A stretch of 64,000 nucleotides of DNA from a bacterium (GTDB taxonomy: Bacteria; UBA10199; 2-02-FULL-50-16; JAJFLM01): contig CBDCFN010000016.1 of assembly GCA_965216315.1 (NCBI GenBank), positions 1,504,001 to 1,568,000 on the forward strand, in the 5' to 3' direction. Made by a program: the position numbers and the translations under genes. Positions 34,266-61,342 of the stretch are shown here, piece by piece; position 1 is the first letter of the stretch, and every line of letters starts with the position of its first letter. A model generated the notes under the pieces. That model had not been told where the DNA came from, searched no databases, and was given only the letters and a program-made list of their open reading frames with translations.

Positions 34266-34292
34266 GCAACCTTTAGCCGCCGAGGCCGAAGA
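34266..34292 (+). promoter_or_regulatory. Sigma28-like promoter, copy 1
   Basis: GCAACCTT-N11-GCCGAAGA, ending 7 nt before the ATG at 34300. Confidence 0.7.
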
Positions 34293-34299
34293 TGTTCCC

Positions 34300-35961
34300 A
34301 TGTCCACGGTCATGGGAACAACACCGTTTATGTCAGCCAGCTTGCTTGCAAGTAGCCGTTTTCCTCAAATCACCTCACAACTTGATCATATTCAGCACCG
34401 CCAGTTGGGCGACAGCTTCTTAGGGCAGCTCAGCGACGCCGATATTTTTATCGCTGACATTTCCTGTTTGCGAAATGATCAGTGGCTGCATCGCATGGAC
34501 ATGGCCGGGTCTCTCAGCACGATCGAGAGGATCCTTGGCGAATTTAAAGGAACGACCTCTCATTCTCACCTTGCGGTTGTTCGTGAAAACGAGGTCCCCT
34601 CACCGGTCGCCCAACGCATTGTCACTGCGCGACCCGCATTGAAATCAAGCAACCGCGAATTCCACATCGAGGGCTATTTTCAACCTTTCGCGACGCAGAC
34701 GCTCGATGCCAATCGGCTGCAACCCGTAAAGGGGCTCACTCGCGACTCGAAGCTGTCATTCTATCCCCCTCCCTATGTGCCTCTCAATACACAGGACGAA
34801 TACAAGATTCTGCAAATGCTCGAGTACGCCGGCATCCACTACGAAACTCCGCGTTGCGATGCCGCTCGTTACGGTGTCACTGCATTTGATGCGGGACGTC
34901 GCTTTGTCTTCAAGACAAACCTAGACTTCATTACCTTCGACTGGGATCACACGCTCAGCAATTACCAGATCTTTGAAGAAATTGCCCCCATCATTCGCGC
35001 CAAGCTTTCCAAGCAAGAGCCACCGGAGGCCTTGGCTGAACGCCCCATGACCGCCCTCGAAGTGGCGCGCCCTTTTATGCAGGAATTGGTATTGGGCATG
35101 ATGGTCGGTTATGCTTTTAGGCAAGGACTAACTAATTTCCAGCAATGGGAGCAATACAAGCCACAAGTCGGTATTGTCACTCATACTTGGCCTGACCGTT
35201 TGGGCGTGCTCGCTGAACACTTCGTCCGTTTGTTACCGCTGATGGAGGGATTACTACCCGGAACACCTGGCGTCTATAACTGGATGACACATTCCGATGT
35301 CCGTTCGATCACCCACCTGCATCACTTCTTAAGTTACGCCGAAAGTCTGCTCCGCAAATTCGAACATGTCGGCCTGGAAGGACTGACAGAAACCGAACAA
35401 GCGGAATTGATGGGCTACATGGAAGACGGCAAGGCCCATTATCGAAAACCCTTGGGGACCTTGGCCATGCGCGGTTGGGAATTTTCCAGTCTGCTTCATT
35501 TTGACGACTCAACCAAGGTCATCAATGACTTAGTCGAACACGTACACGCCGAAGCCATCCGCGGCCTTTGGGTGCGCCAACCGCATTCAAAAAAACTTGA
35601 TGTCGGTGAGCTCAATAAAATCGTGCTCTCCTCACTCTGGCGTTCACGAGAGGCGGCACGCCTACGCGCCGCACGCAACCTGATTCGCGCCGAAGAACAG
35701 GGGTTCACCCTGCCGTATGTGCTCAGTGCCATGCAGATGTTCAGCGTCACGCGCCAAACCGACCAGTTGGCCTATCGCGCGCCCCTGCCCGCCGGTACGG
35801 TTTTCCGGCTCCATGAAACCCCGACCACCGTCGGTGAGTACTGGCGTTACTATGTGAACCCCACCAATCGCCTCAAGCAGCAGGTGCGCGCCGTGCGCAA
35901 AGCGGCCGGCGGTCTGCGCGCACTGCGGCATCAATATAAAGAAATCCGAAAAAAACCCTAA
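34300..35961 (+). CDS. Hypothetical protein with HAD-like motifs and Ser/Thr-rich leader
   Basis: FITFDWDHTL (DxDxT motif I), GIVTHT (possible motif II), LLHFDDS (motif IV-like); leader MSTVMGTTPFMSASLLASS. Confidence 0.6.
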   Translation: MSTVMGTTPFMSASLLASSRFPQITSQLDHIQHRQLGDSFLGQLSDADIFIADISCLRNDQWLHRMDMAGSLSTIERILGEFKGTTSHSHLAVVRENEVPSPVAQRIVTARPALKSSNREFHIEGYFQPFATQTLDANRLQPVKGLTRDSKLSFYPPPYVPLNTQDEYKILQMLEYAGIHYETPRCDAARYGVTAFDAGRRFVFKTNLDFITFDWDHTLSNYQIFEEIAPIIRAKLSKQEPPEALAERPMTALEVARPFMQELVLGMMVGYAFRQGLTNFQQWEQYKPQVGIVTHTWPDRLGVLAEHFVRLLPLMEGLLPGTPGVYNWMTHSDVRSITHLHHFLSYAESLLRKFEHVGLEGLTETEQAELMGYMEDGKAHYRKPLGTLAMRGWEFSSLLHFDDSTKVINDLVEHVHAEAIRGLWVRQPHSKKLDVGELNKIVLSSLWRSREAARLRAARNLIRAEEQGFTLPYVLSAMQMFSVTRQTDQLAYRAPLPAGTVFRLHETPTTVGEYWRYYVNPTNRLKQQVRAVRKAAGGLRALRHQYKEIRKKP

Positions 35962-36019
35962 AAAACAGGTTTTTCGGCCCCATTTTTAACTTATCGCAAG
36001 AGAATTCCTCAGTTTTTAC

Positions 36020-36046
36020 GCAACATTAGCCCATTCAGCGCGAGAA
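36020..36046 (+). promoter_or_regulatory. Sigma28-like promoter, copy 2 (weaker -10)
   Basis: GCAACATT-N11-CGCGAGAA, upstream of 36099. Confidence 0.5.
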
Positions 36047-36098
36047 TGCCCTTAAGTGGAGTCATATGACTCCGTAGTGGTGTAACTGAGGGAGATTT

Positions 36099-36923
36099 AT
36101 GGCATTTTTAGCGGCATCGACGATGACCAGTCAGTTGGGGCTCACCTCCGTCTTGGCGAGTTCAAATCTGACCAACAGCGCGCTTCCGGTCGCCGTTACG
36201 ACCGCCGCAGCCACCACAGTGGCGCCTGCCATTGCTTCAGCGCAACCCTTTACACCGCCACCGGATCCCGCACAGCGACCGAGTGCTGAAGACACGCCTC
36301 CGATCGATGAAATTTTTGGCGATGCCGCGAATAACGGTCTGGGCGACATTCCCGTAACAGAACTCAATAACCCGGATCAGACCTGGCCGATTCTTATCGC
36401 GGCGGCAAGCTTTAGCGTCCCGTTAACACGGCTCGCTCTCGGCGTCTTCCGCCCCCTCCTCCCCAAGTCCTGGAAGACCGCCGATCAATCACTGGCCGCT
36501 GAAGGAGCCCTGCACAGCGCCAATCATTTTGTCAGCCGTGTCGCTAATTCGACGGTCGGCAGCATCGCGGCGCATGCGCGCAACCTCGGAGCGGCCATCT
36601 ACGTGGGCCACTCGCTTTCACATGATGCGCTTCGTCTCTTCCCCGAACAATACTGGCCGGAACTTTTGATCGTCTTCGGGATCGGAACGAGCCTGATCAC
36701 CCGCTTTAGTGCCTGGCGCCGGGCGCGCAAACTCAAGAAGGCGGGCGTGCCGGCCGAAGAAATCGCCGCCATGCGACAGCATGCCCTCGGTTTCATGCCG
36801 AAACGCATGCCAAAACCCAAGCAACTGCAAGCATCAAGTAATACCGTCACGGAAACAGCGACGGATATCGAAGCAGCAACAGTTACAACAACAGATACGG
36901 AGCCACCTGAAGGAACAGCCTGA
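36099..36923 (+). CDS. Hypothetical membrane protein with Ser/Thr-rich leader
   Basis: GGGAGA SD; leader MAFLAASTMTSQLGLTSVLASS; Pro-rich linker; hydrophobic segments. Confidence 0.65.
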   Translation: MAFLAASTMTSQLGLTSVLASSNLTNSALPVAVTTAAATTVAPAIASAQPFTPPPDPAQRPSAEDTPPIDEIFGDAANNGLGDIPVTELNNPDQTWPILIAAASFSVPLTRLALGVFRPLLPKSWKTADQSLAAEGALHSANHFVSRVANSTVGSIAAHARNLGAAIYVGHSLSHDALRLFPEQYWPELLIVFGIGTSLITRFSAWRRARKLKKAGVPAEEIAAMRQHALGFMPKRMPKPKQLQASSNTVTETATDIEAATVTTTDTEPPEGTA

Positions 36924-39550
36924 TGACACTGCCACTCGGGACGACGACAAACACACTGCTCACGTCTAACTTTCTCGGGCTTGCGGCCTCCGCACCGCTC
37001 TTAAACAATTCATTAACGGGTAACGCGCCGACCACTGACAATCAAACTCTGCTGGATGACAGCAGTGCTTATCAGGACCCCACCACATCCAGTCCGCTGA
37101 CCGAGACCTCACTGACTGCGGCCGCAGCGGTTTTCGGGCCCGAACCGCCCATCGCCGAAGTGAATCCGACAGCCACGATTGAAGAAGACCTTGAAAGCGC
37201 CGCCCGCACCAATCCGAGAGGATCATTGGCGTTATTGGCTGCCTTAGCGACCGTCACGACCCTCGCGGTTCCCGGCACGGCCTTTGCCCAAGACGGGGTC
37301 ATGGAAGCCTCCGGAACCAGTACCTACGACCCGACAACGCATCTGATCGTCTTGGCCGCCCTTTTTTCAATTCCCATCTTACGAGGAACCGTTCAGGTCG
37401 CACGTCAGGTATATCAATGGTTTAAAGAAACTTTCGGGGAAGCTCCGGTCTCTGCGCGTGCGCCCAAAACCGGTCCTCCGGCTGCGGAAGAAACCACCCC
37501 CGCCGAACCCTCTGAACAACCTGATTATCTCTATCCGCAGCCATTTGAAGCGATCAATCAGGTGACGGGCAAGGCCGAACGCGTTTTTTCTACCGTAAGA
37601 GATGCATCCATACCGCTAATGATTCAAAAAGACCTCTATTTTCCCCTCATCGGCGGTGCCTCGTTTTTCTTAACCGGCGGCTTTGATCGACCCTTGTGGG
37701 CCTTGGCCATCGATGCTTCAGCGATGGGACTGGCCTACCTCAATCGCTGGTATCAACTTCGCAAAGTTGACCGGCCGCTCATCGAAGCCGTCAAAGAAAA
37801 ACCTTTGACCTCGGATGCCTTCAAAAAACATTTGGAACGTCCACTCGGCGTCCTCGGACCACCCGTGCCGACGGTCGAAGAGTTTCATGAAGACGAATTT
37901 TTTCGCCTCAATAAGCGACTTTTTGATGGAGAACCGACACGCAGTCGTTTGAGAAGCTATTTCGCGCTTAAAGACATCCTCCAAGCCGCTTTTTTACTCG
38001 TAACTCAAATCAATGATCGAACCGGCTCGGCAACGCTCTTAAAAGAAATGTGGCGTTACGCGCTGAACTCGGAAATTTTACCGGCCGATGAAGATAATTT
38101 AGAGGCCGCACATGCCATTGCCCGCCAATGGGCCATCCAAAGTTCCGCCCGCATGCGCGCTAACCTCTCGTTTGATGGCATCGAACAGCTGACAACGATC
38201 CCCGAAGGCGCCCCCGTCATCATGATCGGAAATCACGATTCTTCAATGTGGCCTTCTTTTTGGGCGGCCTTTTTAATGCGACTCAGTGACGGACGTGACA
38301 TTCACGGTCGACCGATTGCAGACATCAGCAATTTTGCATTGGCACCCTGGATGCGTTTGAGTCCCTTATCAGTGCTCGGTATCGCCCTCCAGAAACTCGG
38401 CCTCATCTACGTCCCGCGCAAATCAAAACCCAAAAAGCGCAAACTATGGAAACGTATTCTAATTAATTGGAACCCGCTTCTTCTCCCGCTTAGGGGCCTC
38501 TACCACGGCGGGGTTTGGGCGCTCACCAGACTAGGGCTCCTTGAGAAGGCGCACTTCGATTGGCCTAAGGATCTCGTCGACAAGGCAAAGATGGGTATCT
38601 ATCCCTTAGGGTATCCGGCCGGCGGCCGTGAACCCGCCTGCTATAATGAAGCGGGCGAAGTGATTCAATCAAGCCCGCTGGCCAACGTCCTCAGCACCAA
38701 GAACCCCCATTATTTCATCGCCCGCGGTATTGCCGAGCAAGCCGTCGAAATTGCGAGCCAAAACGGCGGTCAAACCGTCTATGCTCCGTATATCTACACG
38801 AACGGCGCCTATCGCGTCGCCCACAAGCAGAAGAAAGGCTTTGGCGCCTTTGTTGAACCGATTACAACCGATCAGGACGTGAATTATAGCGTTCAAGGCA
38901 TTGATCAAGTTCAACCTAACGAATCGGCAGATGCCGTATCAACGCGTTGGGAGAAACTGTCTATCGAGGCGACGGGTACAGAACAGGTCCTGCAAGAACA
39001 GGTTCTCGACTGGCTCCAACGATATCGGCGCGACGATGCCCGCCGTCTGCATGATGTGTTTATCGCGCAGGCAAGCGGGCAAATGGCCGCACGTGACGCC
39101 TCCGTCGAAGCTGCCAAAGGCAACTATCCCATCCATTATCTCATTGCCGCACGCATTACCGCTATTCGACCGGGTCTTCCGAATAACGATCGTCGCGTCT
39201 TTCAAGATCGTTTCTTCGACCTGCTAAATAACCAAGTAGACCACAGCAAAATGCAGGAAATGATCGAACAACTGAATCATGCTAACTTGGAGCATCTCCT
39301 GATTACGCTCAATGACGAAGTCCTGCAAAATCATTTAGCTTACAGGGAAAGAATGCGCTTGCGCCGCTGGCTGGGTGAGATGAATAATCAAGATTCTCGA
39401 GAGGCCTTGTTGGCGGATGAATCACGTGCGACATTGCGTGAGATGATGAATTCATTCAACGCGCAAGCCTGTCACCGTTTTGCGTTACTGACGCTCTTGA
39501 GGGATATCTCGATTCGGGTCAAACAGGTTGAATATAAGGCCGCGGCGTAA
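36923..39550 (+). CDS. Large membrane protein with divergent lysophospholipid acyltransferase-like domain
   Basis: TGATG coupling to the upstream gene; GIEQL..IP...PVIMIGNHDS, LGLIYVPR and YPAGGR resemble PlsC blocks I-III, but the HxxxxD Asp is replaced by Trp. Confidence 0.55.
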   Translation: MTLPLGTTTNTLLTSNFLGLAASAPLLNNSLTGNAPTTDNQTLLDDSSAYQDPTTSSPLTETSLTAAAAVFGPEPPIAEVNPTATIEEDLESAARTNPRGSLALLAALATVTTLAVPGTAFAQDGVMEASGTSTYDPTTHLIVLAALFSIPILRGTVQVARQVYQWFKETFGEAPVSARAPKTGPPAAEETTPAEPSEQPDYLYPQPFEAINQVTGKAERVFSTVRDASIPLMIQKDLYFPLIGGASFFLTGGFDRPLWALAIDASAMGLAYLNRWYQLRKVDRPLIEAVKEKPLTSDAFKKHLERPLGVLGPPVPTVEEFHEDEFFRLNKRLFDGEPTRSRLRSYFALKDILQAAFLLVTQINDRTGSATLLKEMWRYALNSEILPADEDNLEAAHAIARQWAIQSSARMRANLSFDGIEQLTTIPEGAPVIMIGNHDSSMWPSFWAAFLMRLSDGRDIHGRPIADISNFALAPWMRLSPLSVLGIALQKLGLIYVPRKSKPKKRKLWKRILINWNPLLLPLRGLYHGGVWALTRLGLLEKAHFDWPKDLVDKAKMGIYPLGYPAGGREPACYNEAGEVIQSSPLANVLSTKNPHYFIARGIAEQAVEIASQNGGQTVYAPYIYTNGAYRVAHKQKKGFGAFVEPITTDQDVNYSVQGIDQVQPNESADAVSTRWEKLSIEATGTEQVLQEQVLDWLQRYRRDDARRLHDVFIAQASGQMAARDASVEAAKGNYPIHYLIAARITAIRPGLPNNDRRVFQDRFFDLLNNQVDHSKMQEMIEQLNHANLEHLLITLNDEVLQNHLAYRERMRLRRWLGEMNNQDSREALLADESRATLREMMNSFNAQACHRFALLTLLRDISIRVKQVEYKAAA

Positions 39551-39590
39551 AATTGGCCTAATTTTTCGCAAATTTTCGCAAGGTCGCCGA

Positions 39591-39617
39591 GCAACTTTAT
39601 TCAGGGACTGCCGATGC
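39591..39617 (+). promoter_or_regulatory. Sigma28-like promoter, copy 3
   Basis: GCAACTTT-N11-GCCGATGC, ending 11 nt before the ATG at 39629. Confidence 0.75.
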
Positions 39618-39628
39618 TGCAGTGAATT

Positions 39629-41317
39629 ATGACCCTACTCGCCCTCAATCCAGCTCTGGCAACATCGCTGCTGGCCGCCGCAGCATCCGGTCCCGGACCG
39701 ACTGGCACTCAGCAACTCTCGCAGCATATCTTTCGCTTAGCCGCCCACCCGAACATTCGCGAGGTCCCGGCTGAGGCCCTGACCCAGATCCGCACTGGAG
39801 TACAAAGTGATGATAATTTAACGCTTAAGTACGTAGACCAACTGCAATCAAGTGCTGATCCCAGTGCAATCGCCCAGGCCTTGATTGAAATCGGGTCGCG
39901 GCAAAGCGCTGTCGGCAGGCTCGCAACAGCAAATCCTCCCGACTTATCGCAATTAGACATCCCGGAACGTCAACTTGAAACCGATTCGGAAATAACCCTG
40001 CAGGCTTGGCTTAGCAGTCTAACGGGGGGCCAAATCTCTGAGGAAGCCCTGACCCTGGGACAGCGCTGGGGGCGCTATGGTTACTTCCTCAGCGGGGCCG
40101 CCCATATGCTGGGCATACCCGCAGCGCTCATGACTGCAGCCACGGCACTGATTATGGGTGATCCCGTCGTCGGTGGTATTTCCGCCGGATTTCTTACGAC
40201 TTATCTAGCCAACTTTCTACAACGCTACCGACGTAGCAATATCATGCTGCAATCAACGGAACAGGGCCCCTTTACCCCCCGGCAAATCGAAGCGTATCTT
40301 AAAAGTTATCAATTATACCCCGGTGCGCTTCGTGAGCTCAGAGAGGCGTCCGCTCATCGCGATCAGGAATTGTTTGACGTCATCGCAGCCATTGAAGCCT
40401 CGGCAGGACCGAGGGGGCTTCAACCGACACTCAGTTCTAGAGCGTTTCTACAAGGGCTGTACAATTTTCTTAACATTTCGACGATTGGAAATCTAGGGCT
40501 CGCCCGCGATGCAAACGGTGATTACTACGATTTAGCCGCGCAGGCCATTGGACTTGGAGTCATGCAACGCTTGCAGTGGCAGCCGCTCGTCCTACACGGA
40601 GAACGCTTACAAGAACTCAAGGAATTGCAACGCAATAATCCGCGAGCTCGATTTGTTTTCGTCCCCAATCACCGCAGTCACTTGGATACCCTAGTGACGG
40701 TCTCACTCGTCCGAGATTTTCGCGCTCGTTTCGTCGCGAAAGACGCTCTGGGCAAGGCACCGGGGCTCGGCTGGTCACTTTTCCCGGAACCCTGGCATCC
40801 CTTGAAAAACAGCCTCATTCGAGGTCCAGGCAGCATGTTGATCCATCGCGGTGGAGAGGCCTCTCATCGGCATCTGACGGCGTTTGTCGGCGAAAAATTT
40901 GCGGCCCATGAATCCGTGGTCATCTTTCCGGAACAAACACGCCTTGATACGACGGACCGAAATGTCGAATTAGGCATGCGCCCTTATAGAGAAGGCATTT
41001 TTCACGCCGCCCATCATTGGACGAATATTGCCGACGAGACTTATGACATCTATTTTGTCCCGCTATCTTATTATGGAGTCGGTCGAATTTTTCCAAAAAG
41101 TAATGATAAGGCAAGTAGTGAAGGCGGTCTCATGAATCAACCCGTCGCCATGTCAATCGGCACGCCAATTCAAGCCCCCAAAAGAATCAATTCCTCCGGA
41201 GAAAGCGATAGAGACTACATCCACGCATTAAACCGGACAGTCTGGTGGCAACATTGGCAACAGCTTGCGGCACTCCAGTCCTTTATGAACCGCTACAGCC
41301 CCGCGATTTCAAGATAG
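39629..41317 (+). CDS. PlsC-family (LPLAT) acyltransferase with long N-terminal extension
   Basis: FVPNHRSHLD, FVAKDAL, IHRG, VIFPEQTR; leader MTLLALNPALATSLLAAAAS. Confidence 0.8.
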   Translation: MTLLALNPALATSLLAAAASGPGPTGTQQLSQHIFRLAAHPNIREVPAEALTQIRTGVQSDDNLTLKYVDQLQSSADPSAIAQALIEIGSRQSAVGRLATANPPDLSQLDIPERQLETDSEITLQAWLSSLTGGQISEEALTLGQRWGRYGYFLSGAAHMLGIPAALMTAATALIMGDPVVGGISAGFLTTYLANFLQRYRRSNIMLQSTEQGPFTPRQIEAYLKSYQLYPGALRELREASAHRDQELFDVIAAIEASAGPRGLQPTLSSRAFLQGLYNFLNISTIGNLGLARDANGDYYDLAAQAIGLGVMQRLQWQPLVLHGERLQELKELQRNNPRARFVFVPNHRSHLDTLVTVSLVRDFRARFVAKDALGKAPGLGWSLFPEPWHPLKNSLIRGPGSMLIHRGGEASHRHLTAFVGEKFAAHESVVIFPEQTRLDTTDRNVELGMRPYREGIFHAAHHWTNIADETYDIYFVPLSYYGVGRIFPKSNDKASSEGGLMNQPVAMSIGTPIQAPKRINSSGESDRDYIHALNRTVWWQHWQQLAALQSFMNRYSPAISR

Positions 41318-41334: not shown

Positions 41335-43215
41335 CTAGGTCAACCCGGTATCGGCCTGACGTCCCGCTATTTTTTCCATCTCACGAATGATGGCTGAATT
41401 TAGCTGAAGAATATCGTAATTGGAACGATCGGGGAAATCCTCTGCTCTTATTAATGACTCCGGTGGCAAATAACCGGCAAGTGCCACAAAGCCATCTTCT
41501 TCACCAATTCGAGCCAGATGAAAATTATTATCAGAACTAAAGAAACCACCCAATGAACGAGGAATATCCTGAACGGGGACACCCCCACGGTGGAGGTTGT
41601 TGGCAAAGATATGGATGCCGGAATTAATATTCATGGCCAGCTTGGCATGCATTCCGGTCATGTCACGCGACGGGATATAGGCACCCGGCATATGAAGGGC
41701 ACCAGGATGATTGAGATCCATATAAGGTCCGACCAAGGGATACTCAATCGCCCGCGTTCCAGTCCCAAACATGGCCAACATCATCCCCTCTTTGACACGG
41801 GCCTCCATGGCCTCATAAACTTCGTTCATGATTCTTTCTCGCTCTTCGTCGTTCGCATCCTTAGGCGGACGCTTCAGATAAACGCCTCTCATGTGTAAAT
41901 ACCCTGCCATCGCCGGAATCGCCTTAAACGCCTCTTCTGCGAGAATTGAAGCCGGATTCATCCCCAACAGATAGAGACCACCGATAAGTCCGGCATAATC
42001 CATAGCACCGGTATGCGACCAATGAGAAATGCTTCCCTGACGAACGGTATTCTCCCCTTGAATAAAAGTAGAAAGTCCATCCATAAGTCCCGCCTCAATG
42101 GGACGATGATGTCCAAACAGAGGCGCATTCGCTCGATGCACGATGCGAAACGATCCATACTGCCAACTAAGCAGGTTAAGAGCGAATTGAGTTGCGGCAG
42201 CATAATCAAGGTCTTCCATCGGAAGTTTTCCTGCTTTGGCTTTTTTCACTAAGTCCCGGACGTTCCATACGATCTCTAGAAAGGGTTCCAATGCGGTCAT
42301 CCCATTAGGACCCTGATCAATGAGCTTGGCCTGCGTCTTGATATGAAATGTCAGGGGCGCCCCGAGGGCTTCAATGCCATTATGCCCTATCTTGCGATAA
42401 ATTTTCTGCACGGTCTGATGGAGATCCCGCAGGGCCACTAAGGCCTTTTCTTCCGTTTTCTTGCGCCGATTTTCGCGACAGCCGGGATCATCTTGGCTCA
42501 TGCGCCGATCATATTCGATATACTCCGACATGCTCGTTTCATAAGTACGAAGCGCTGCCTCAAACTTTTTTATCTGTCCCTTTGACGGCGATCGCGTCCC
42601 CTCCTCGGCAACCGCCATGAGATCGCGATAACCGGCAAGTTGCCAGCGAAGTTCCACTTCCTCCGCTTGAACGAGTAATTCCTTTTCTCGTTTCCAGCGA
42701 TCCCAAGCCCTATCCCCAATCCGCAAATTGCGTTCATGGAGATTGGCATCCTGGTAATTCCCCTCCCAGTCCTCAAGCATCTCGCGCCAAAGATCACGAC
42801 TGGCATCATTGATAGCAATCAACTCCTGCTTGGCGGCTTCATACGCTTGACGCCCTTTTGACGAGTGAAGTTCCATACGATTCCTCACCTGATCAGCTGC
42901 CCATGCCAGGCGATCCGAATGAAAGCTGGCATGAGATGAACGAAGAGCCTCCTCTTGGCCGGGAGATGGAAGCTGTTGATAATTAAACCGACTTGAAATG
43001 CGCTCTCGATCAAGAACATACAAAGACGTGCCCCGAGCTTCTACGAATGGCGTAATCCCCGCCAAGAAGCGCCGCGCAATATACCCCCCCATGCTATTGG
43101 AATTCTGACCTGCCCAGGTCTGGGCTTGAGGTGACATGGCGGTCAAGGGACCCGCACTCGAAGCCAAGAGTGCGGAACTTCCCATTGAAATTGTTGAAAA
43201 CGCTGAAAGTGTCAT
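41335..43215 (-). CDS. Divergent acyltransferase-like protein with helical N-terminal extension
   Basis: WSHTGAMD (HxxxxD), ILAEEAFKAIP, GVYLKR, LAMFGTGTR; leader MTLSAFSTISMGSSALLASS. Confidence 0.6.
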   Translation of the reverse strand: MTLSAFSTISMGSSALLASSAGPLTAMSPQAQTWAGQNSNSMGGYIARRFLAGITPFVEARGTSLYVLDRERISSRFNYQQLPSPGQEEALRSSHASFHSDRLAWAADQVRNRMELHSSKGRQAYEAAKQELIAINDASRDLWREMLEDWEGNYQDANLHERNLRIGDRAWDRWKREKELLVQAEEVELRWQLAGYRDLMAVAEEGTRSPSKGQIKKFEAALRTYETSMSEYIEYDRRMSQDDPGCRENRRKKTEEKALVALRDLHQTVQKIYRKIGHNGIEALGAPLTFHIKTQAKLIDQGPNGMTALEPFLEIVWNVRDLVKKAKAGKLPMEDLDYAAATQFALNLLSWQYGSFRIVHRANAPLFGHHRPIEAGLMDGLSTFIQGENTVRQGSISHWSHTGAMDYAGLIGGLYLLGMNPASILAEEAFKAIPAMAGYLHMRGVYLKRPPKDANDEERERIMNEVYEAMEARVKEGMMLAMFGTGTRAIEYPLVGPYMDLNHPGALHMPGAYIPSRDMTGMHAKLAMNINSGIHIFANNLHRGGVPVQDIPRSLGGFFSSDNNFHLARIGEEDGFVALAGYLPPESLIRAEDFPDRSNYDILQLNSAIIREMEKIAGRQADTGLT

Positions 43216-43300: not shown

Positions 43301-43327
43301 TCTTCGGCCCTAGCGGGCTAAAGTTGT
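43301..43327 (-). promoter_or_regulatory. Sigma28-like promoter, copy 4
   Basis: On minus strand ACAACTTT-N11-GCCGAAGA, 85 nt upstream of the ATG at 43215. Confidence 0.7.
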
Positions 43328-44629: not shown

Positions 44630-45312
44630 TGAGTGAAGATATTCAAAAAATGTTCAGCTCGATTGCCCCGCGTTATGACCGACTGAATCACGTCTTGTCA
44701 TTTCAAATCGATCGGCTCTGGCGCAAAGAGGCCATCGCCGAACTCAATCATTGCCACAATGTCCTCGACCTGTGTGCAGGAACATTGGACCTTTCCATCA
44801 TGCTCGCCAAGCAATCGCCTAAAGTTCATATCGATGCCGTCGATTTCTCGGCCGAAATGTTGCGCCACGGGGAACTAAAACTAGATGACACTATGCGTAC
44901 CCGCATTCGCACCTATTGTGCGGATATCCAAAAACTCCCGTTCAAAGACGACACGTACGATGGTGCGATGGTTGCCTACGGCATGCGCAATGTCGACGAC
45001 AACCAGCGCGCCTTGACCGAAATCCTTCGTGTTATCAAACCCGGCGGCAAACTTGTCGTTCTGGAATTTTTCAAACCCAATCGACTCGCGGCGCGAATCT
45101 TTCACGCGACGTATGGCCGCTTTGTCATTCCCTGCCTCGGCGGTCTTATCAGCGGCAACCGTCAGGCCTATCGCTACCTGCGTGATTCCATTCGCGGCTT
45201 TCACACGACCGAAGAGTACGAATCCTTGATGCAGCGCTGTGGGTTTCGTGAGGTTACCTTTCGCCATCAGTGGGGGGGAGCCAGCACCCTGTTTATGGGG
45301 AAAAAACCATGA
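44626..45312 (+). CDS. menG: Demethylmenaquinone methyltransferase (UbiE/MenG)
   Basis: MFSSIAPRYDRLNHVLS..IDRLWR, VLDLCAGT.D, YGMRNV, KPGGKLVVLEF, AYRYL.DSI. Confidence 0.92.
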   Translation: MMSEDIQKMFSSIAPRYDRLNHVLSFQIDRLWRKEAIAELNHCHNVLDLCAGTLDLSIMLAKQSPKVHIDAVDFSAEMLRHGELKLDDTMRTRIRTYCADIQKLPFKDDTYDGAMVAYGMRNVDDNQRALTEILRVIKPGGKLVVLEFFKPNRLAARIFHATYGRFVIPCLGGLISGNRQAYRYLRDSIRGFHTTEEYESLMQRCGFREVTFRHQWGGASTLFMGKKP

Positions 45313-47286: not shown

Positions 47287-47967
47287 CTAGGAATCGAAAG
47301 GTTGCAGCACACCCTGATAGTCCTGTCCATCCCAGTACCAATCTTCCGTCCGCATTAAACACACGTTTGATAATACCCGTGGCCTGATCACGCCGGCGCA
47401 TTCTCCTCCTGTATCTCTTACACTACTATAGACCACCCCATTATCACCACTATCCCTAAGTCCCGCTCCAAACCGCTGAGACTCACTGTAATCAAGCGAT
47501 CGATAATAGCGTGGATATTTCTTTTGCTGCTTACGAAGATCAACAAACTCACCGGCAATTTTCCCGCAAATAACAAGATACGAGATCTTCCCCGCACCGA
47601 TCCCATAATCTCTATTGGATACTGTATGATGATAGACTACTTCCTTGACCGAAGTTTTATAGTCTTTGCTCGCATAATAAACGCCCCAACTGTCATTAAA
47701 CCGACTGCCTGTCCCATCATAAGTATAATGGGCATAGGCTCCTGATATATAGACTGATGATTGAATACTTGTTAAGTCAGCCGCATCAAAGTAAGGGTAT
47801 CGGTTCAAAATTTGCTTGCGAAGATTAAAAGAGCTCTCCAGATCACGTACCGCTGTCTGTTTCCTTGAATCCATTTTTTTGTAGAGTCTGTCAAAAGCGG
47901 AGCGGTCGTACCTGGTCCTAATAAGGCGAAAGCAATTTTCCCAGTTCAGCTTGGTTTTTTTAGTCAA
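47287..47967 (-). CDS. RES-domain toxin (NAD+ phosphorylase family)
   Basis: GSRFN...GVYYAS....SVKEV.YH, Y..SQ.FG..LR..G..GVVYSSVR..GGEC; TTG start directly after the antitoxin. Confidence 0.85.
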   Translation of the reverse strand: MTKKTKLNWENCFRLIRTRYDRSAFDRLYKKMDSRKQTAVRDLESSFNLRKQILNRYPYFDAADLTSIQSSVYISGAYAHYTYDGTGSRFNDSWGVYYASKDYKTSVKEVVYHHTVSNRDYGIGAGKISYLVICGKIAGEFVDLRKQQKKYPRYYRSLDYSESQRFGAGLRDSGDNGVVYSSVRDTGGECAGVIRPRVLSNVCLMRTEDWYWDGQDYQGVLQPFDS

Positions 47968-47968
47968 C

Positions 47969-48382
47969 TTAAATACTCCGAGCGCCTTCGAAGTACCTTC
48001 TAACCTCCAACAGATCGGGAATTGATCTACGCATCTTCTCTAATACCGTCATGCCCTCAAAGATAGGCGCGCTTAGCCTTCTACGAACAAGTCTGTCTGC
48101 ATCTTCCTCATTGGGCACAAGAAGTTCTATGTTCTTAAAAATGCCTAGGATGTGAGATAAGCGTTCACGCTTATCTTTATCCAACTTCAAATTTTCATTG
48201 TTCTGCCAATTGTATAAATTAGCTTTCTGCCGTTCCTCCAGGCCCAGCAGATCAAGCTTTTCAGCCACTGTTAGTCCCCACAGCTTTGCAATCTCTGCAA
48301 AGGCCAACATGCCCGCAGTAGACTGCTCTTCAATGCTAGTCGTTGCCCCCGCATCACCTGGGGATTGGTATTCCGGCTGCAT
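47969..48382 (-). CDS. Xre/MbcA/ParS-type antitoxin
   Basis: GGAGG SD and ATG at 48382; AF..IA..WGL...E...LLG, ERLS.ILGIFK..E.L, P.FEG.T.LE.M....DL..VRRY. Confidence 0.85.
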   Translation of the reverse strand: MQPEYQSPGDAGATTSIEEQSTAGMLAFAEIAKLWGLTVAEKLDLLGLEERQKANLYNWQNNENLKLDKDKRERLSHILGIFKNIELLVPNEEDADRLVRRRLSAPIFEGMTVLEKMRRSIPDLLEVRRYFEGARSI

Positions 48383-48401
48383 AGGACCTCCTGAATGTCT
48401 A

Positions 48402-48434
48402 ATATTATAATATATTCTTAATATAGTATAATAT
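48402..48434. promoter_or_regulatory. Inverted-repeat operator upstream of TA operon
   Basis: ATATTATAATATATT-CTT-AATATAGTATAATAT (15-bp arms, one mismatch) containing TATAAT boxes. Confidence 0.6.
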
Positions 48435-48515
48435 CGGAAAATATACCAGAAAGTTGTCCCTTTAACTCCTCCCTTATTTAATGAATAATAACAGATAGTT
48501 AGAAAGGGGCCGCCC

Positions 48516-51951: not shown

Positions 51952-52109
51952 TTTCCAGCCTCAGCAACCAAGCTATGACCGTACGGCTTGTATACAATTG
52001 AATGGGACACTTTCCGAATAAAGCGAAAAATCGTTGTCATTTGTGCCCGGAGACGCTAAATTCTCCCGCTCTGAGGCGTATTGATAAGATTAATTTTAAG
52101 GAGATTTTT

Positions 52110-53265: not shown

Positions 53266-53292
53266 GCAACCTTCCCTGCACTCAACCGAAAA
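53266..53292 (+). promoter_or_regulatory. Sigma28-like promoter, copy 5
   Basis: GCAACCTT-N11-ACCGAAAA, ending 9 nt before the ATG at 53302. Confidence 0.65.
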
Positions 53293-53301: not shown

Positions 53302-54633
53302 ATGCTCTCAATCGCCTCCACGACCACCATGAGTCTCCATGCGGTGCCTTTATTGGCCGCCAATAATTTCGTCGCGACTCAGCCGGAACTAAGCGCTCAG
53401 CTGCAGTTGGTCACCGAACAGGGACTCCGGACTCAACTGCTCTCTACTTTAAGAGATCGTGGCGTGGCCGTTGAAAACTATACGGACTTGAGTAAGGCAT
53501 CCGTGCTTGAAGATAGGGACATCAGTGATCGCCTCCGTTTTGCGTTGCGAACCACACTCGATGATCCCCAGCCCGCTTTCCGGACAAAGCAACTCGTCGC
53601 TCTTCCCGATATTCTTACAATCCCGTGGCCCTCGAAGGTCCGTCGGCACTTTAAAGAAAGTACGGGACAGTCACGCTGGCTGCTCAAGCCCGAGGGCTTT
53701 GACATGCGCCGCGAATTAAGGCGCTTCGCACGCGACCAACACAAAGGGCGCATTCGCTATCCGCAAAGTGCCCGTGAACATGCCAGTTGGGTCGCAGCGA
53801 TTCGACGTCAACAACATTTAGGCCGGACCATTGCGTGGCACAAGCCGCGTCACGGAGTTCAAGAGATTCTTAACTTCCTTAATATTCGCATTCAGCCACG
53901 CGGGAAAATTCCGGAATCAATCAATCCGGACCTGCTCGGTTTTCAACGGCTCGGAACGGCCAATCCCTTGCCCGGCGATCTCATGACTTACTCGATTGCT
54001 TTTTTCACGAGCGCAGCCATTGTAACGCAGAGTACCTGGGACGCTACCGCCGCCGAAGTGATGGTCCTCGGGGGCCGTTCAACGTTTTTAACCCGCCCCG
54101 AAAACGTCGGAACGCGACCCGAATATTGGCGCTTTATCCCGGAACGAAAGCCGGAGCTACTCGTCACTTCGGGCTCACGCCTGGATCAAGTGGACTTTAA
54201 GGCGCCGACTCATGAAAACGTGTTAAAGCCTTTGGCGTCACAGCTGCGATTCAAGGCCAAGGCTTTCACGGTGCTCGAAAGTCATGCGGGTCCGGCGCTG
54301 GGAATGGATGCTTGGCAGGTCCTCTATGAATTGGCCAATTCAGACTCCGCAATTCTGACCTTTCAGCTCCTCGGTCGCGGTCAACAACGCCGTTTGGCCG
54401 TCGCCATTCGCTATTTCCAAGCAATTCACAGTGACCGCTTCCACTTCCTGAGCTCCGCCGAGCGCGCCCTACGTGACTTAGCGCGATCCTACGAATTAAG
54501 GCGGCTGGATATCTACTATCCTTTGTGCACTCGTGACAGCATGAGACGCGCGCTCAAACGCAGGCGTTATAGCCCCCTGCGCTCCCCATTTCACGGCAAA
54601 ATCCTCGGAAAGCGAATTATTCTGACCAGTTGA
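53302..54633 (+). CDS. Orphan Arg-rich hypothetical protein with Ser/Thr-rich leader
   Basis: 443-aa ORF; leader MLSIASTTTMSLHAVPLLAANN; no recognised domain. Confidence 0.65.
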   Translation: MLSIASTTTMSLHAVPLLAANNFVATQPELSAQLQLVTEQGLRTQLLSTLRDRGVAVENYTDLSKASVLEDRDISDRLRFALRTTLDDPQPAFRTKQLVALPDILTIPWPSKVRRHFKESTGQSRWLLKPEGFDMRRELRRFARDQHKGRIRYPQSAREHASWVAAIRRQQHLGRTIAWHKPRHGVQEILNFLNIRIQPRGKIPESINPDLLGFQRLGTANPLPGDLMTYSIAFFTSAAIVTQSTWDATAAEVMVLGGRSTFLTRPENVGTRPEYWRFIPERKPELLVTSGSRLDQVDFKAPTHENVLKPLASQLRFKAKAFTVLESHAGPALGMDAWQVLYELANSDSAILTFQLLGRGQQRRLAVAIRYFQAIHSDRFHFLSSAERALRDLARSYELRRLDIYYPLCTRDSMRRALKRRRYSPLRSPFHGKILGKRIILTS

Positions 54634-54980: not shown

Positions 54981-54998
54981 ATCACTTTCCTGCCCCAC

Positions 54999-55216: not shown

Positions 55217-55648
55217 ATGCAGCATAAAATCCTACTGGGGGTCGGCGCGTTTTTCTTCTTGATTGGAGGCCTTATGGTCGGGCCGCAGGGCTCACTGCAA
55301 GAGGCCTTCGCCAAACCGCCCAAATGGGCCCCCGCCCACGGCTATCGGCGCAAGCATGAAGACGGCCACAAGCACAAACATAAGCATAAGCATGAAGCGC
55401 GGACCTACGAGTCACGTGAAAACTCTTACTCGTGGACGTATAGCCGCATCGACGTCAATAATGACGGCCGAATCAGCTTATCCGAATGGAATGAAAGCAA
55501 AGAACTGTTCATCATCTTGGACCGTAATCGGGACGGTTATGTCAGCCCGACCGAATACGCCGGTATCGATGAACAACGCGGCTTGATTAGCGGCCTGCTC
55601 GCCAAGGTCAAAGAAAAGGTCGGCAGCTTTTGGGGCTGGTTGTTTTAA
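55217..55648 (+). CDS. Secreted EF-hand protein with His/Lys-rich tract
   Basis: GGAGG SD; signal peptide; PPKWAPAHGYRRK; HKHKHKHKH; DVNNDGRISLSE and DRNRDGYVSPTE loops. Confidence 0.8.
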   Translation: MQHKILLGVGAFFFLIGGLMVGPQGSLQEAFAKPPKWAPAHGYRRKHEDGHKHKHKHKHEARTYESRENSYSWTYSRIDVNNDGRISLSEWNESKELFIILDRNRDGYVSPTEYAGIDEQRGLISGLLAKVKEKVGSFWGWLF

Positions 55649-55848
55649 AACACACCTGCGGCTCGTCTCAACGGGAGCGGTTGCAAGCGGAACTACCGGG
55701 CAGGCAGTCAAAAAAGATGGCTGCCTAATTTACGTGCAATAATTCATAAAATCCCACCCGGCGCATCTTTGCGCCTGCCGTATGGCACTTCTCCAACAAT
55801 TGAGACGATACAGAATGTACTATATGCTCGAAATGACTCTTTTTTTCG

Positions 55849-55907
55849 TTGACCTCTGACCATTTTTGTCCATAATCCATCCCATCTAGACTGACACGTC
55901 AGTCTAG
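55849..55907 (+). promoter_or_regulatory. Sigma70-like promoter with perfect palindromic operator
   Basis: TTGACC-N16-CATAAT (55849-55876) followed by CTAGACTGAC-AC-GTCAGTCTAG (55886-55907). Confidence 0.65.
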
Positions 55908-56010
55908 TCCGTAATAACGAAAGCCCAGCTTCCGTTATTACTCTAGTTAAGGGGGCGAAAACTCTCCCCCCTTACATCCCCCCATCGTGGGGTCACTTAG
56001 GGAGAACTTA

Positions 56011-59000: not shown

Positions 59001-59526
59001 GCGTTCCATCCCGCAGGATGAAGAATACTTAAAACGCTTCTTTGGCAAAGATATTGCTGAAGGTAAAATTGAATCTGTCTTCGACATCCGTGATGTCTGG
59101 CCCGAGAACTACAGTGCTAACAGCGCGCAAAAAGTCTGGTCCGTCAAATTTGCATCACGCCACCCCAATGTCGCGATCTTGGACCTATCCAGCTTTAAGT
59201 GCGGTCATGATGCGCCTACTTATGGCATCCATGACAAGATTGTTTCAACGAGCAACACTCCCTACTCCGCCCTGCATGATATTGATGCCAACAAACCGGG
59301 AGGCTCAATCAAAATCCGCGTCAAGACCTACACCCATTCGCTTTCGTTGCGTGAAGAGGTCCTCGATGACCTCACCAAGAAAAAACAGGAATTAGAGCGT
59401 CGGATTGCAGCCAAACGTTCAGAACTGCTTGGAAAGCAATCGTCTCCAACAACGACGGATGAAATCGTATTACCAATTTATCAAGCCGAAACCGAGGAGG
59501 AAAAATATGCAGCCTCAAACTTCTAG
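56011..59526 (+). CDS. CoA-substrate-specific enzyme activase (two BadF/BcrA-D ATPase domains plus DUF2229-like domain), PlsA-like
   Basis: GVDVGSTTVK and GLDGGSTSSK ASKHA motifs, ELGGQDAK / DIGGQDIK, NDKCASGTG / NQCSAGNG, CHFCPNNC, DPCYPSKV, SSFKCGHD; GGAG SD before ATG 56011. Confidence 0.88.
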   Translation: MAQKLMIGVDVGSTTVKATVVDPETLDILWSDYQRHETKQPEKVLEFLVRIGNEFNDVAQEDIRLFLTGSGSAPLCEPLGGKFVQEVNSVTLAVEKLHPDVGSVVELGGQDAKIIIFKENQETGEKQAITSMNDKCASGTGATIDKCMIKAGVDNDFSSKLVFNGDKLHHVAAKCGVFAETDIVNLVKSGIPSDEILNSLADAIVMQNLSVLTRGNTLRHKVLLLGGPNCYLPFLQECWRKRIPETWNERNYDYPKDVPIEDIIIVPENAQYYAAYGAVLYGTYEPAEAGVYKGLNELKNFINFGRKAKLGEQAGKPLVANEAELEAFKEDYTIPQFKPQVIEAGSVVKGYVGLDGGSTSSKAVLVDEAGEIILKAYQLSKGNPIQDTKEILKQMKDYITDQGATLEVLGFGATGYAADVLESSLKSDVNIVETVAHMMSAVHFFGDVDVICDIGGQDIKVLFMKNGDIKNFKLSNQCSAGNGMLLQAMADQFGIKVQDYADVAFGADLAPKFSYGCAVFLDSDRVNFQKEGFSKEELLSGLAQVLPKNVWQYVVQIPRMAELGRRFVLQGGTQYNLAAVKAQVDYIKERVPGAEVLVHPHCGEAGAIGAAMETRRVVQRRGYSTFVGLDSGIDLKYISRNDESTVCHFCPNNCSRTFIDTETPDGDTARYISGFSCEKGTVESKEEMVKLSKKRNELKKEFPNLVDYEAKALYRTYTKDPMPEDGDVYEDIKVKRGFFGLGNVKRIPYTRTFQRSSEAAWEKRKDIRIAIPRVLNIWSTAPMWRAYFESLGIPSKNVVWSDYTSEEMWTEGGKYGSIDPCYPSKVAQAHIHNILFHKHSDEKPINYLFFPILTHVESFMDHVVDTACCPIVSGAPEVMKAAFTKENDFFAERNMTYFDPALTMNEPTLFKKQMFEAFQPLLDMTEDESDFAVDQGWKALRTVDKDLQTRGREILDWAEKEGKMTLLMVGRPYHLDPGLNHEVLDEFQVRGYPVLSMRSIPQDEEYLKRFFGKDIAEGKIESVFDIRDVWPENYSANSAQKVWSVKFASRHPNVAILDLSSFKCGHDAPTYGIHDKIVSTSNTPYSALHDIDANKPGGSIKIRVKTYTHSLSLREEVLDDLTKKKQELERRIAAKRSELLGKQSSPTTTDEIVLPIYQAETEEEKYAASNF

Positions 59527-61159
59527 CAAACTGAAAGCGCAGCTTCCAGTTTACAATAGTAAGGGGGAAGAAAACTCTCTCCCCCCTTACAACCCCTCAT
59601 CGAATGCTCAGATAGAAGAGAAACTTGCACAATTTGAGCATGAAACACGTAAGGAACTTGGTCTTGATCTCGCTATCGACAAGGAACAGTGGAACGACAC
59701 GATCAACCGCGATTTCTTCGCGGACCAGCGAGAACACACCACGATTCTTGTTTCCGGGCTGACCATGGCCCACGATAATTTTGTCCAAGCGGGACTTGCG
59801 GGACTGGGTTACAAAATCAAAGCGCTGGATTGCCCTGACAATGAGGCCCTCCAGTTCGGAAAAGAATACGGCAACCGCGGGCAATGCAATCCAACCTATT
59901 TCACTGTCGGTAATCTGGTCAAATACCTATGTCAGTTACGTGATCAAGGGATGACCGAAAAAGAAATCATTGACTCACACGTTTTTCTTACCGCGGGCGC
60001 CTGTGGCCCGTGTCGCTTCGGCATGTATGTCACGGAATACCGCAAGGCCCTCAATGATGCCGGGTTTGAAGGTTTCCGCGTTATGCTCTTTGATGCCAAT
60101 GGAGGCATGTCGCAGGCAACCGGCCGTGAAGTTGGTCTCAAAATGGACCGCGCGTTCTTCCTGACCTTGGCCAAAGCCATCATTACAGGAGATGCCCTCA
60201 ACGCCATTATGTATCGCATTCGCCCCTACGAAGTTGTTGAAGGCAGCACTGATGAAGCGATTGAAGATTGCCGCGCCTATATTATGACGGCTCTCAAAGA
60301 GAAAAAATCACTTCTAAGAGCGCTCTGGCGCTGCCGCAAACGCTTACAACAAATTGAAGTCGATCGAACGATGGTAAAGCCTAAAGTCAGTATTATTGGT
60401 GAATTCTGGGCCATGACAACGGAAGGTGAAGGCAACTATCGTCTCCAACGTTTCTTGGAACAAGAAGGAGCCGAGGTCGATATCCAACTCATCGTCGGTT
60501 GGATCCTCTACAACCTGTGGCAAGCGCGCGTCGACACACGTCAACGCATGCGGCTCCGCCATGCCGACATGGACGCTCGCAAGGGACTCAAAACAACACA
60601 AGTCGCCAAAAAATTCCTGCTCTTGAATGTAGCGGAATGGGTCCTCAAAGGAACGTTTTACACTATCGGTAAGATCCTTGGGCTCAAGAACTATCATTTG
60701 CCCAACATGGAAGAAAATGCAGAGCTTGCCTCTGAGCACTACAATAATGAACTGCGCGGCGGTGAGGGCCACATGGAAGTCGGCAAACTTATCCAAACGG
60801 TCATCCATGACAAGGCCCACATGGTTATCTCCGTGAAACCATTTGGGTGCATGCCCTCTTCCGGCGTCTCGGACGGCGTCCAAAGCATCATTACGGAAAG
60901 GTATCCGGAGGCCATCTTCCTCCCGATCGAAACTTCGGGTGATGGCGCAGTAAACGTTTACAGTCGGATTCAGATGATGCTCTTTAAAGCGAAACGAGCT
61001 GCAGAATTGGAATATGAAAACCTGCTCAAAAAGAAAGGGCTCACTCTTGAGAAAGTGAAGGCGAAGATTGCGCGCAGTCGCCGCTTGAGTAAAACGACTC
61101 ACTACGCACCCCATAAGGCAGCGGGTACCGCCGCTAACTTCCTGCACGAAGCGGCCTAA
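59507..61159 (+). CDS. 2-hydroxyacyl-CoA dehydratase/reductase-like subunit, PlsR-like
   Basis: GAGGAGG SD; GQCNPTYFTVG, GACGPCRFGMY, GGEGHMEVG, VKPFGCMP; overlaps the upstream gene. Confidence 0.85.
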   Translation: MQPQTSSKLKAQLPVYNSKGEENSLPPYNPSSNAQIEEKLAQFEHETRKELGLDLAIDKEQWNDTINRDFFADQREHTTILVSGLTMAHDNFVQAGLAGLGYKIKALDCPDNEALQFGKEYGNRGQCNPTYFTVGNLVKYLCQLRDQGMTEKEIIDSHVFLTAGACGPCRFGMYVTEYRKALNDAGFEGFRVMLFDANGGMSQATGREVGLKMDRAFFLTLAKAIITGDALNAIMYRIRPYEVVEGSTDEAIEDCRAYIMTALKEKKSLLRALWRCRKRLQQIEVDRTMVKPKVSIIGEFWAMTTEGEGNYRLQRFLEQEGAEVDIQLIVGWILYNLWQARVDTRQRMRLRHADMDARKGLKTTQVAKKFLLLNVAEWVLKGTFYTIGKILGLKNYHLPNMEENAELASEHYNNELRGGEGHMEVGKLIQTVIHDKAHMVISVKPFGCMPSSGVSDGVQSIITERYPEAIFLPIETSGDGAVNVYSRIQMMLFKAKRAAELEYENLLKKKGLTLEKVKAKIARSRRLSKTTHYAPHKAAGTAANFLHEAA

Positions 61160-61247
61160 ATCCCCCTTAGTCCCCCTTTACAAAGGGGGAGATAGCGGTA
61201 TCCACTTGGTGTCCCTCCCTTTTGCAAAGGGAGGCCAGGAGGGATTT
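61158..61247. repeat. Inverted doublet of CCCCCTTT...AAAGGGGG palindromes; likely also terminator
   Basis: AAATCCCCCTTAGTCCCCCTTTACAAAGGGGGA ... CCCTCCCTTTTGCAAAGGGAGGCCAGGAGGGATTT. Confidence 0.8.
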
Positions 61248-61315
61248 AAGCTGCAGCTATAATCCTTTATTTTTCAGTGGGTTAGCCCACCCATTTTAGA
61301 GCAACCGCTCTAAGC

Positions 61316-61342
61316 GCAACTTTTCAGCTCAACGGACGAATA
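61316..61342 (+). promoter_or_regulatory. Sigma28-like promoter, copy 6
   Basis: GCAACTTT-N11-GACGAATA, upstream of the hybrid kinase. Confidence 0.6.

Follow-up and report, generated by a model that had tools for sequence, protein, structure and literature searches.

The 64,000-nucleotide stretch of DNA analysed here, hereafter the window, spans positions 1,504,001 to 1,568,000 of contig CBDCFN010000016.1 in a genome of the bacterial phylum UBA10199 (assembly GCA_965216315.1) and carries a series of promoter-like sites in front of largely uncharacterised genes. We attribute these sites to an alternative sigma factor of the sigma28 family that is encoded within a non-flagellar type III secretion cluster elsewhere in the same genome. 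At a probability of roughly 0.7, we propose that this sigma28 variant serves an injectisome, controlling its needle genes together with a dispersed regulon of candidate cargo. The source genome, designated G000, comprises 2.96 Mb and is 98.3% complete; the window corresponds to C16:1504001-1568000. No description of this regulon was found in the literature searched (subscription papers and supplements lay outside the search).

In the proposed mechanism, the variant would keep the residues that read the -10 element and recognise GCCGATAA, and its changed helix would read RCAAC rather than TAAAG; the late tier of the flagellar hierarchy would have been transferred to an injectisome. A small protein whose gene just precedes that of the sigma factor would bind the latter, probably as an FlgM-like anti-sigma. 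Once freed, the sigma factor would transcribe genes for secreted parts of the apparatus (needle-like and tip/translocator-like) and, probably, the operon to which it belongs, for the most part from promoters with a 13-nt spacer; it would also transcribe about 200 dispersed genes from promoters with an 11-nt spacer, many of them leaderless. The S/T/A/L-rich uncharged tag found at the N-terminus of many products would most simply be a type III export signal; taken as such, it makes the tagged proteins probable cargo, delivered on contact with a host or prey cell.

The promoter motif and the sigma28 variant

Six octamer pairs with an 11-nt spacer, from which the original prediction of a shared sigma28-like promoter had been drawn, were all recovered at their positions in the window (Table 1). 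The window is also enriched in the pattern: RCAACHTT-N13-CGA matches it eight times, compared with 0.26±0.50 in 100 dinucleotide shuffles (largest count, 2). Across the whole of G000, the RCAACHTT-N-CGA pattern gave 115 matches at a spacer of 11, whereas none of the 15 remaining spacers between 4 and 19 gave fewer than 6 or more than 20. Iteration of a position weight matrix (PWM) defined the constant core as RCAAC-N16-CGA, within the full motif RCAAC-ttt-N11-gcCGATAA. The RCAAC and CGA parts of the predicted box are thus constant, and its TTT is soft, as are the GC..TAA flanks. About 32 matches fall in a coding repeat (C16:684-691 kb); these artefacts bias the matrix slightly and were masked for the final counts. 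With the repeat masked and a PWM score of at least 15, 256 sites were obtained, 205 of them in sense orientation upstream of an open reading frame (ORF), compared with 23-44 at spacers 7-10 and 14-16; upstream counts are approximate, since gene calls came from our own ORF selection. The regulon is much broader, as had been suspected, with about 200 promoters in G000. The motif itself is confirmed, and its features are those expected if it acts as a promoter. Its -10 box is the sigma28 (FliA/WhiG) element GCCGATAA, set 11 nt from an 8-nt -35 box. The canonical -35 sequence TAAAG(TTT), with only three canonical matches in the whole of G000, is not the box used; RCAAC stands in its place. A sigma54 reading of the motif was dropped by reasoning on orientation and geometry.

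The position of the sites relative to start codons follows the same geometry. Among 217 upstream sites, the commonest distance from -10 to ATG is 7 nt, seen at 25 sites, and 80 sites fall between 6 and 11 nt. Shine-Dalgarno sequences accompany 6 of 87 short leaders, 17 of 38 middle ones and 57 of 92 long ones. Excerpts of the Pseudomonas sigma28 structural report number the element as (-15)GCCGATAA(-8) (PMC12784957). On that numbering, an ATG placed 7 nt past the -10 box coincides with +1, and many leaderless mRNAs are therefore predicted. The three short gaps of the original prediction hold in the window (7 nt at 34300, 11 nt at 39629 and 9 nt at 53302, each lacking a Shine-Dalgarno sequence), and at the site 34266 the predicted +1 is the A of ATG 34300.

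G000 encodes RpoD, an RpoH-like factor, two extracytoplasmic function (ECF) factors and one FliA/WhiG-like protein (G000:C16:350583-351410). The last is the sigma28 variant with altered region 4.2 that had been called for, and it is single-copy in 73 of 73 genomes of the phylum. In every one of these genomes the motif outnumbers its reversed control (20-128 against 0-16). Co-occurrence counts in this set are 73 for the sigma orthologue, 72 for SctV, 10 for flagellin and 34 for any ECF match (one ECF query); as the phylum is a single class and kin are not independent, these figures are tallies rather than statistics. The best NCBIfam match of the protein is TIGR02479 at 133 bits, below the cut-off of 189.6, and its best PDB matches are WhiG and FliA. 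Compared with Pseudomonas FliA, the extended -10 reader R97 is kept, Q228 is replaced by Arg, and ESRVSQLH becomes KSWTSRLH; in the resulting recognition helix KSWxSRLH, the residues K, S, W, S, R, L and H are invariant in 29 of 29 sequences. According to excerpts of PMC12784957, Q228 makes a base-specific -35 contact, and its mutation cripples -35 recognition. The promoters are very probably read by this variant. The clade that shares the KSW helix is widespread, is usually annotated as flagellar FliA and includes proteins of Hyalangium minutum and Stigmatella aurantiaca.

The core RCAAC-N16-CGA also resembles an ECF consensus (AAC-N16-CG), and, with two ECF factors and an RpoH-like sigma in G000, the sites could be ECF-type promoters, or bipartite transcription-factor sites that serve RpoD or RpoH, with no connection to the sigma28 variant. 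This is highly improbable on four grounds. With the one query used, ECF matches occur in fewer than half of the genomes tallied above, and no conserved ECF factor co-occurs with the motif. The genome G004 (97% complete) has 94 sites against 5 in its control, yet RpoD and the sigma28 variant are its only sigma factors, with neither ECF nor RpoH by PF04542. The -10 box is the full sigma28 octamer with matching +1 geometry. Finally, the motif tracks the sigma clade into myxobacteria-like loci and precedes the sigma factor's own probable operon. The third sigma of another relative (G043) is a 313-aa putative RpoH, and one further sigma match (L055) was rejected as not real.

The predicted sigma28 attribution is supported, with the refinement that the factor is not flagellar: its gene is part of a type III cluster of the non-flagellar kind, and searches of G000 for flagellin and rod genes returned none. 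Neither the ESRVSQ recognition helix nor a flagellar regulon is present for the G000 sigma. The motif had been expected before flagellin, where it was found in 0 of 4 flagellated relatives examined; all four flagellin promoters are canonical, T(A/C)AAGTTT-N11/12-TCCGT without CAAC, and the genome G062 carries a second, separate FliA with a canonical ESRISQ-type helix. These flagellin promoters (L207-L210) pair their canonical -35 with an unusual -10, TCCGT(C/T).

Several observations were made alongside. In one clade, the DNA immediately upstream of the sigma gene carries a strong site on the opposite strand (L023:8420, L024:630, L025:9868, L027:9549, L033:5709, L035:2620), and several loci have a second antisense site about 3 kb downstream; antisense feedback is possible. 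A helicase-like frame of 1033 aa (G000:C16:91474-94575) contains an RpoD-like region-4 segment and a tag-like N-terminus. About 14 consecutive genes from two paralogous families (G000:C16:2157000-2200000) are for the most part each preceded by a near-consensus promoter; their N-termini contain Cys and lack the LLAS tag described below.

The type III cluster and its 13-nt promoters

The cluster that holds the sigma gene also encodes SctV, J, L, N, O, Q, R, S and T and SycD-like chaperones, SctU being encoded elsewhere. The type III secretion system (T3SS) export core of the non-flagellar kind (SctJ, L, N, Q, R, S, T, U and V) is present without flagellar rod or filament genes, several of the Sct subunits being best matches below curated cut-offs. 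A second promoter class was revealed once spacers of 12-13 nt were allowed. In G000, such sites precede a needle-like gene (C16:347331), the head of the probable sigma operon (349487) and two tip/translocator-like genes (368180 and 370762), and two other cluster genes have 11-nt sites (360553 and 362888). Of 21 relatives, 18 have a 13-nt site before the needle-like gene (one more has a 12-nt site), and 19 of 21 have one before the first gene of the sigma factor's probable operon, compared with 50 of 800 random windows. Counts are 8 of 47 before the SctI-like gene and 1 of 21 before the gene preceding the needle. The 13-nt pattern rises above control in 44 of 51 genomes.

The needle-like gene (C16:347385-347936) has a conserved C-terminal segment, Q..SN..K..HD..I.N.R, and is directly followed by a CdsG-like TPR chaperone gene. 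In profile searches of the needle family, type III needle entries made up 9 of 9 and 11 of 12 PDB matches, with a best E-value of 5.6e-5. The gene probably encodes an SctF needle. Five related tip/translocator-like genes lie beside two SycD-like chaperones. A sixth member of that family is found outside the cluster (G000:C16:1437033-1438475). A profile comparison of A1 with A6 indicated no relationship (probability 4.7%).

Immediately upstream of the sigma gene lies a divergent gene of 100-140 aa. A structural model of the sigma and partner proteins from one relative (L031) scored 0.82, with a best control of 0.02, contact agreement of at least 72% and a partner pLDDT of at least 57; the mark applied to such pair models is reached by 116 of 157 solved pairs and 2 of 215 mismatched pairs. 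Because FliA-FlgM complexes have been solved, part of this score may be recall of the sigma surface. The model supports binding of the partner to sigma for the L031 pair, and an anti-sigma role for the partner seems somewhat likelier than a different function.

The same arrangement extends to myxobacteria-like DNA. Eighty metagenome loci whose sigma is 53-99% identical to the protein of the Hyalangium/Stigmatella clade, and whose taxonomy is assigned from that identity alone, keep the order needle-like gene, TPR chaperone, small partner, sigma, SctI-like gene, SctJ. They contain AAC-N16-CGATA 33 times and the N17 form 16 times, other spacers occurring 0-6 times. The PWM trained on G000 places a site before 29 of the 33 needle-like genes with sufficient upstream DNA, compared with 47 of 660 random windows. 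One such locus (L255:7592-9066) has two tandem needle-like genes.

Excerpts of three reports (PMC12075869, PMC10849154, PMC3459982) describe the Myxococcus T3SS* (mxan_2434-2464) as needed for prey lysis, say that its secretin, needle and translocon are absent, and present its effectors as potential only; its substrates and exit route are an open question in the accessible text of PMC12075869. The system of G000 resembles this T3SS*, or Myxo NF-T3SS, in being a secretin-less basal system with the same core gene order, and in the presence of the sigma clade in Hyalangium and Stigmatella. It differs in that an N-terminally extended SctF-like gene, a chaperone, the sigma factor and the promoter were found, in the myxobacteria-like loci too, and in that no Tad secretin was found in G000. 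The myxobacteria-like loci may correspond to mxan_2434-2464, a cluster that may itself hold a FliA-type gene.

N-terminal tags and the fate of the regulon products

Many regulon products share an unusual N-terminus. By a simple rule, an uncharged S/T-rich N-terminus occurs in 123 of 232 promoter genes and in 129 of 2095 others, many of the latter being Sec signals. The tag motif model consists of an S/T/A/L-rich stretch followed by [LAV]LA[SA][SGA]; in cross-validation, it recognised 85 of 232 held-out promoter genes and 63-74 of 2095 others, and it marked 12 of 28 promoter genes in the related genome G001. About 40% of the dispersed targets are tagged, and the tag sits on orphans or on bacterial-type enzymes. 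In G000 it follows spacer class, being present at 89 of 205 genes with 11-nt sites, 3 of 38 with 12-nt sites and none of 26 with 13-nt sites, many of which look like Sec or lipoprotein genes. In distant families, a loose composition persists in 9 of 50 promoter genes versus 11 of 593 controls; the exact motif is family-restricted.

Type III signals are generally N-terminal, uncharged and S/T-rich. The tag is likewise N-terminal, uncharged and non-Sec, with insufficient hydrophobicity for Sec (only 4 of 123 have a KD19 of at least 1.8), as expected of a type III effector signal. On HutH it forms an addition of about 35 residues to an otherwise ordinary enzyme (65% identity). Among 97 of the 123 tagged proteins scanned with Pfam, 68 had no family. 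The others include PFK, malic enzyme, GDH, HutH, cysteine desulfurase, cysteine dioxygenase, RtcB, acyl-CoA synthetase, DAG kinase, an acetyl-CoA carboxylase (ACC)-biotin-ligase fusion, a fungal-type fatty acid synthase (FAS-I), histidine kinases and receivers, Ser/Thr kinases and cyclases. None of the 97 matched ankyrin, F-box, U-box or LRR domains, which leans toward a bacterial target. GDH, PFK, cysteine desulfurase, RtcB and malic enzyme are tagged extra copies of untagged housekeeping enzymes; no untagged copy of FAS-I or HutH was found in G000. A run of eight tandem laminin-G/ConA-domain paralogues (G000:C16:444170-456124) is mostly tagged and promoter-led.

On this basis, we regard export of the tagged proteins by the type III system as likely, and the odds of their delivery into another cell as evenly balanced. 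Another possibility is that the tag is real and serves a different route, such as the type II secretion system (T2SS) or a further exporter, the sigma factor merely timing expression. The genome does contain a complete-looking T2SS operon that carries its only full secretin, and no CesT-type chaperone was matched, but that search was uninformative, its control matching nowhere. T2SS substrates need Sec or Tat signals, and the tag has neither a basic n-region nor a hydrophobic core, which makes this route very unlikely.

Several results weigh against the injectisome explanation. SctC was not found in G000, the two secretin matches being the T2SS GspD and a small protein, and the outer-membrane route is consequently not accounted for. 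The needle E-values are modest, the tip/translocator-like family had no informative PDB match, and the 13-nt pattern did not exceed control in 7 of the 51 genomes. A Pfam search for FlgM across 29 members of the partner family gave no match, and G000's own copy of the partner aligns poorly. In G001, the tag model also marks 4 of 30 neighbouring control ORFs, and in three distant families the LLAS motif was found in 3 of 16, 0 of 17 and 0 of 17 promoter genes, against 6 of 593 controls. The 136 untagged promoter genes comprise 17 Sec-like and many ordinary ones, so that possession of the promoter does not equal being a substrate. Some tagged enzymes are very large (FAS-I of 3854 aa, ACC of 2588 aa), and, with FAS-I and HutH present only in tagged form, intracellular use fits these enzymes equally well.

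The main rival builds on such points. The same sigma and promoters would govern a life-stage regulon (attack, dormancy or differentiation), the tag would direct proteins to a location inside the cell or in the periplasm (a membrane, a lipid body or a compartment, for example), and injection would not be the fate of most tagged products. Precedent exists in Bdellovibrio, whose FliA became a global attack-phase regulator (excerpts of PMC3627812), and Abby & Rocha, in the accessible part of their article, suggest that systems without a secretin perhaps do not export anything beyond the cell (PMC3459982). The prominence of lipid enzymes, the missing SctC, the tagged-only FAS and HutH of G000 and the many Sec or ordinary targets fit it too. 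It is nonetheless unlikely, given that the sigma, its partner and the needle-like promoters are locked within the type III cluster in two lineages, that the tag has the character of type III signals, and that several tagged enzymes duplicate untagged housekeeping ones.

A more far-reaching version of the injectisome explanation is possible, though doubtful. It describes an early-branching, secretin-less, needle-bearing injectisome that would have retained a sigma28/anti-sigma checkpoint of flagellar style, with a rewired -35 code, two spacer tiers (13 nt for apparatus and envelope, 11 nt for cargo) and possibly partner switching. A phylum without lipid A synthesis and largely without FabF would employ it to deliver 100-150 intact enzymes and regulators of bacterial type into a host bacterium, whose metabolism they would run. 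The tagged lipid-making set of G000 (FAS-I, ACC fused to biotin ligase, malic enzyme, acyl-CoA synthetase and acyltransferases) would, as part of that reading, be self-contained. The promoter should then list Myxococcus T3SS* substrates, and T3SS* should not be needleless.

The distribution of lipid genes touches on lifestyle. FAS-I occurs in 5 of 73 genomes; its N-termini are uncharged in the three f9 copies, one of which has an 11-nt promoter. Of 65 phylum genomes, none had LpxC and one had a FabF match above the cut-off (12 had a match of any strength), which points to a host-dependent lifestyle; regular expressions for Fab and Lpx built on short motifs were weak, and these absences rest on the other searches. 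The phylum is apparently lipid-A-less and largely FAS-II-less, yet G000 has a T2SS secretin.

Related systems and features of the window

The system shares with the late flagellar FliA/FlgM regulon of E. coli and Pseudomonas (excerpts of PMC12784957) a group-3 sigma, R97, the GCCGATAA -10 box, the 11-nt spacer geometry, a secreted filament subunit among the genes transcribed and a small sigma-binding partner, modelled in our case. It differs in its RCAAC rather than TAAAG -35 box, in Arg at Q228 within KSWxSRLH, in the non-flagellar location of the gene, in a partner without FlgM match, in the second, 13-nt spacer class and in its approximately 200 targets. It falls outside the canonical FliA regulon, as the -35 box, the helix and the flagellar targets do not fit. 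The FliA of Bdellovibrio bacteriovorus likewise directs a genome-wide sigma28 regulon with many uncharacterised genes, accounting for 92 of 140 mapped promoters with TTAAG-N16-CCGATA (excerpts of PMC3627812). That FliA is flagellar, whereas the present lineage mostly lacks flagella and, where they occur, has a separate canonical FliA. In Campylobacter, sigma28 co-expresses the non-structural proteins Fed and FspA, some exported by a type III apparatus (excerpts of PMC9856085); a handful pass through the flagellum there, in contrast to roughly a hundred tagged proteins here, which would have a non-flagellar apparatus of their own.

HrpL and the hrp box of Pseudomonas syringae offer a parallel, since there too an alternative sigma encoded in the cluster has a promoter box by which scattered type III substrates can be recognised. 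HrpL, however, belongs to the ECF sigmas and serves a secretin-containing system with plant targets; the present factor is of the sigma28 family in variant form, and its candidate cargo has bacterial-type domains.

A promoter code for a widespread sigma28 clade would link its members to those non-flagellar type III systems that branched off earliest. For the myxobacterial T3SS*, the promoter box and the previously overlooked SctF-like gene make both substrates and exit route testable in a tractable predator, and an uncultured phylum gains a genome-wide candidate list of secreted proteins. For the origin of the injectisome from the flagellum, a regulatory tier seems to have been inherited along with the machine.

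Table 1. Promoter sites and genes of the window, with two tagged enzymes encoded elsewhere in G000 (coordinates with contig prefix).
Feature	Coordinates	Strand	Remarks
Weaker promoter	25876..25902	-	PWM 14.9; 11 nt before ATG 25864 of Sec-signal protein (25238-25864)
Predicted sigma28-variant promoter, 11-nt spacer	34266..34292	+	PWM 21.5; 7 nt before ATG 34300
553-aa orphan with N-terminal tag	34300..35961	+	No Pfam match
Predicted promoter, 11-nt spacer	36020..36046	+	PWM 15.3; 52 nt before ATG 36099
274-aa tagged orphan	36099..36923	+	
875-aa tagged protein	36923..39550	+	Start overlaps stop of preceding gene; PlsC-like NH motif at 437
Predicted promoter, 11-nt spacer	39591..39617	+	PWM 19.9; 11 nt before ATG 39629
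562-aa tagged acyltransferase	39629..41317	+	PF01553
626-aa tagged protein	41335..43215	-	HxxxxD acyltransferase-like motif at about 400
Predicted promoter, 11-nt spacer	43301..43327	-	PWM 21.9; 85 nt before ATG 43215
Additional site	48431..48457	-	PWM 19.3; 48 nt before Xre-like antitoxin (47969-48382) of an Xre/RES pair; membership uncertain
Predicted promoter, 11-nt spacer	53266..53292	+	PWM 20.6; 9 nt before ATG 53302
443-aa tagged orphan	53302..54633	+	
Predicted promoter, 11-nt spacer	61316..61342	+	PWM 19.8; 91 nt before ATG 61434
PAS/histidine-kinase/receiver hybrid	61434..63680	+	N-terminus uncharged, without LLAS motif
FAS-I, 3854 aa, fungal/mycobacterial type	G000:C15:370007-381571		Tag and promoter
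Single-chain ACC, 2588 aa, fused to own biotin ligase	G000:C16:1632121-1639887		Tagged; adjoins tagged acyl-CoA synthetase

Within the window, the promoter at 36020 probably drives a two-gene unit formed by the genes at 36099 and 36923, and the product of the second is, from its motif, a putative acyltransferase. The 34300 protein contains a DxDxT HAD-phosphatase-like motif at residue 214, treated as a lead only; an atlas search returned HAD-type leads for it, all below 0.9, and none for the 53302 protein. Two weaker sites had been proposed before Sec-signal genes: that at 25902 was retained, and that at 51994 was dropped as a promoter site at a PWM score of 3.4. The strong site at 48457 had not been listed previously. 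Matches at 44863 and 60237, both on the minus strand, are antisense within coding genes and probably due to chance.

The Xre/RES toxin-antitoxin pair and the site upstream of it together occupy window positions 47287-48457, and sites also precede TIGR02147-like, uvrA and DEAD-box genes elsewhere in G000. Near the start of the window, two giant surface- or fibre-like proteins of 4516 aa and 2152 aa, the latter with collagen repeats, are encoded at 192-13742 and 14617-21075 around an IS200-like transposase.

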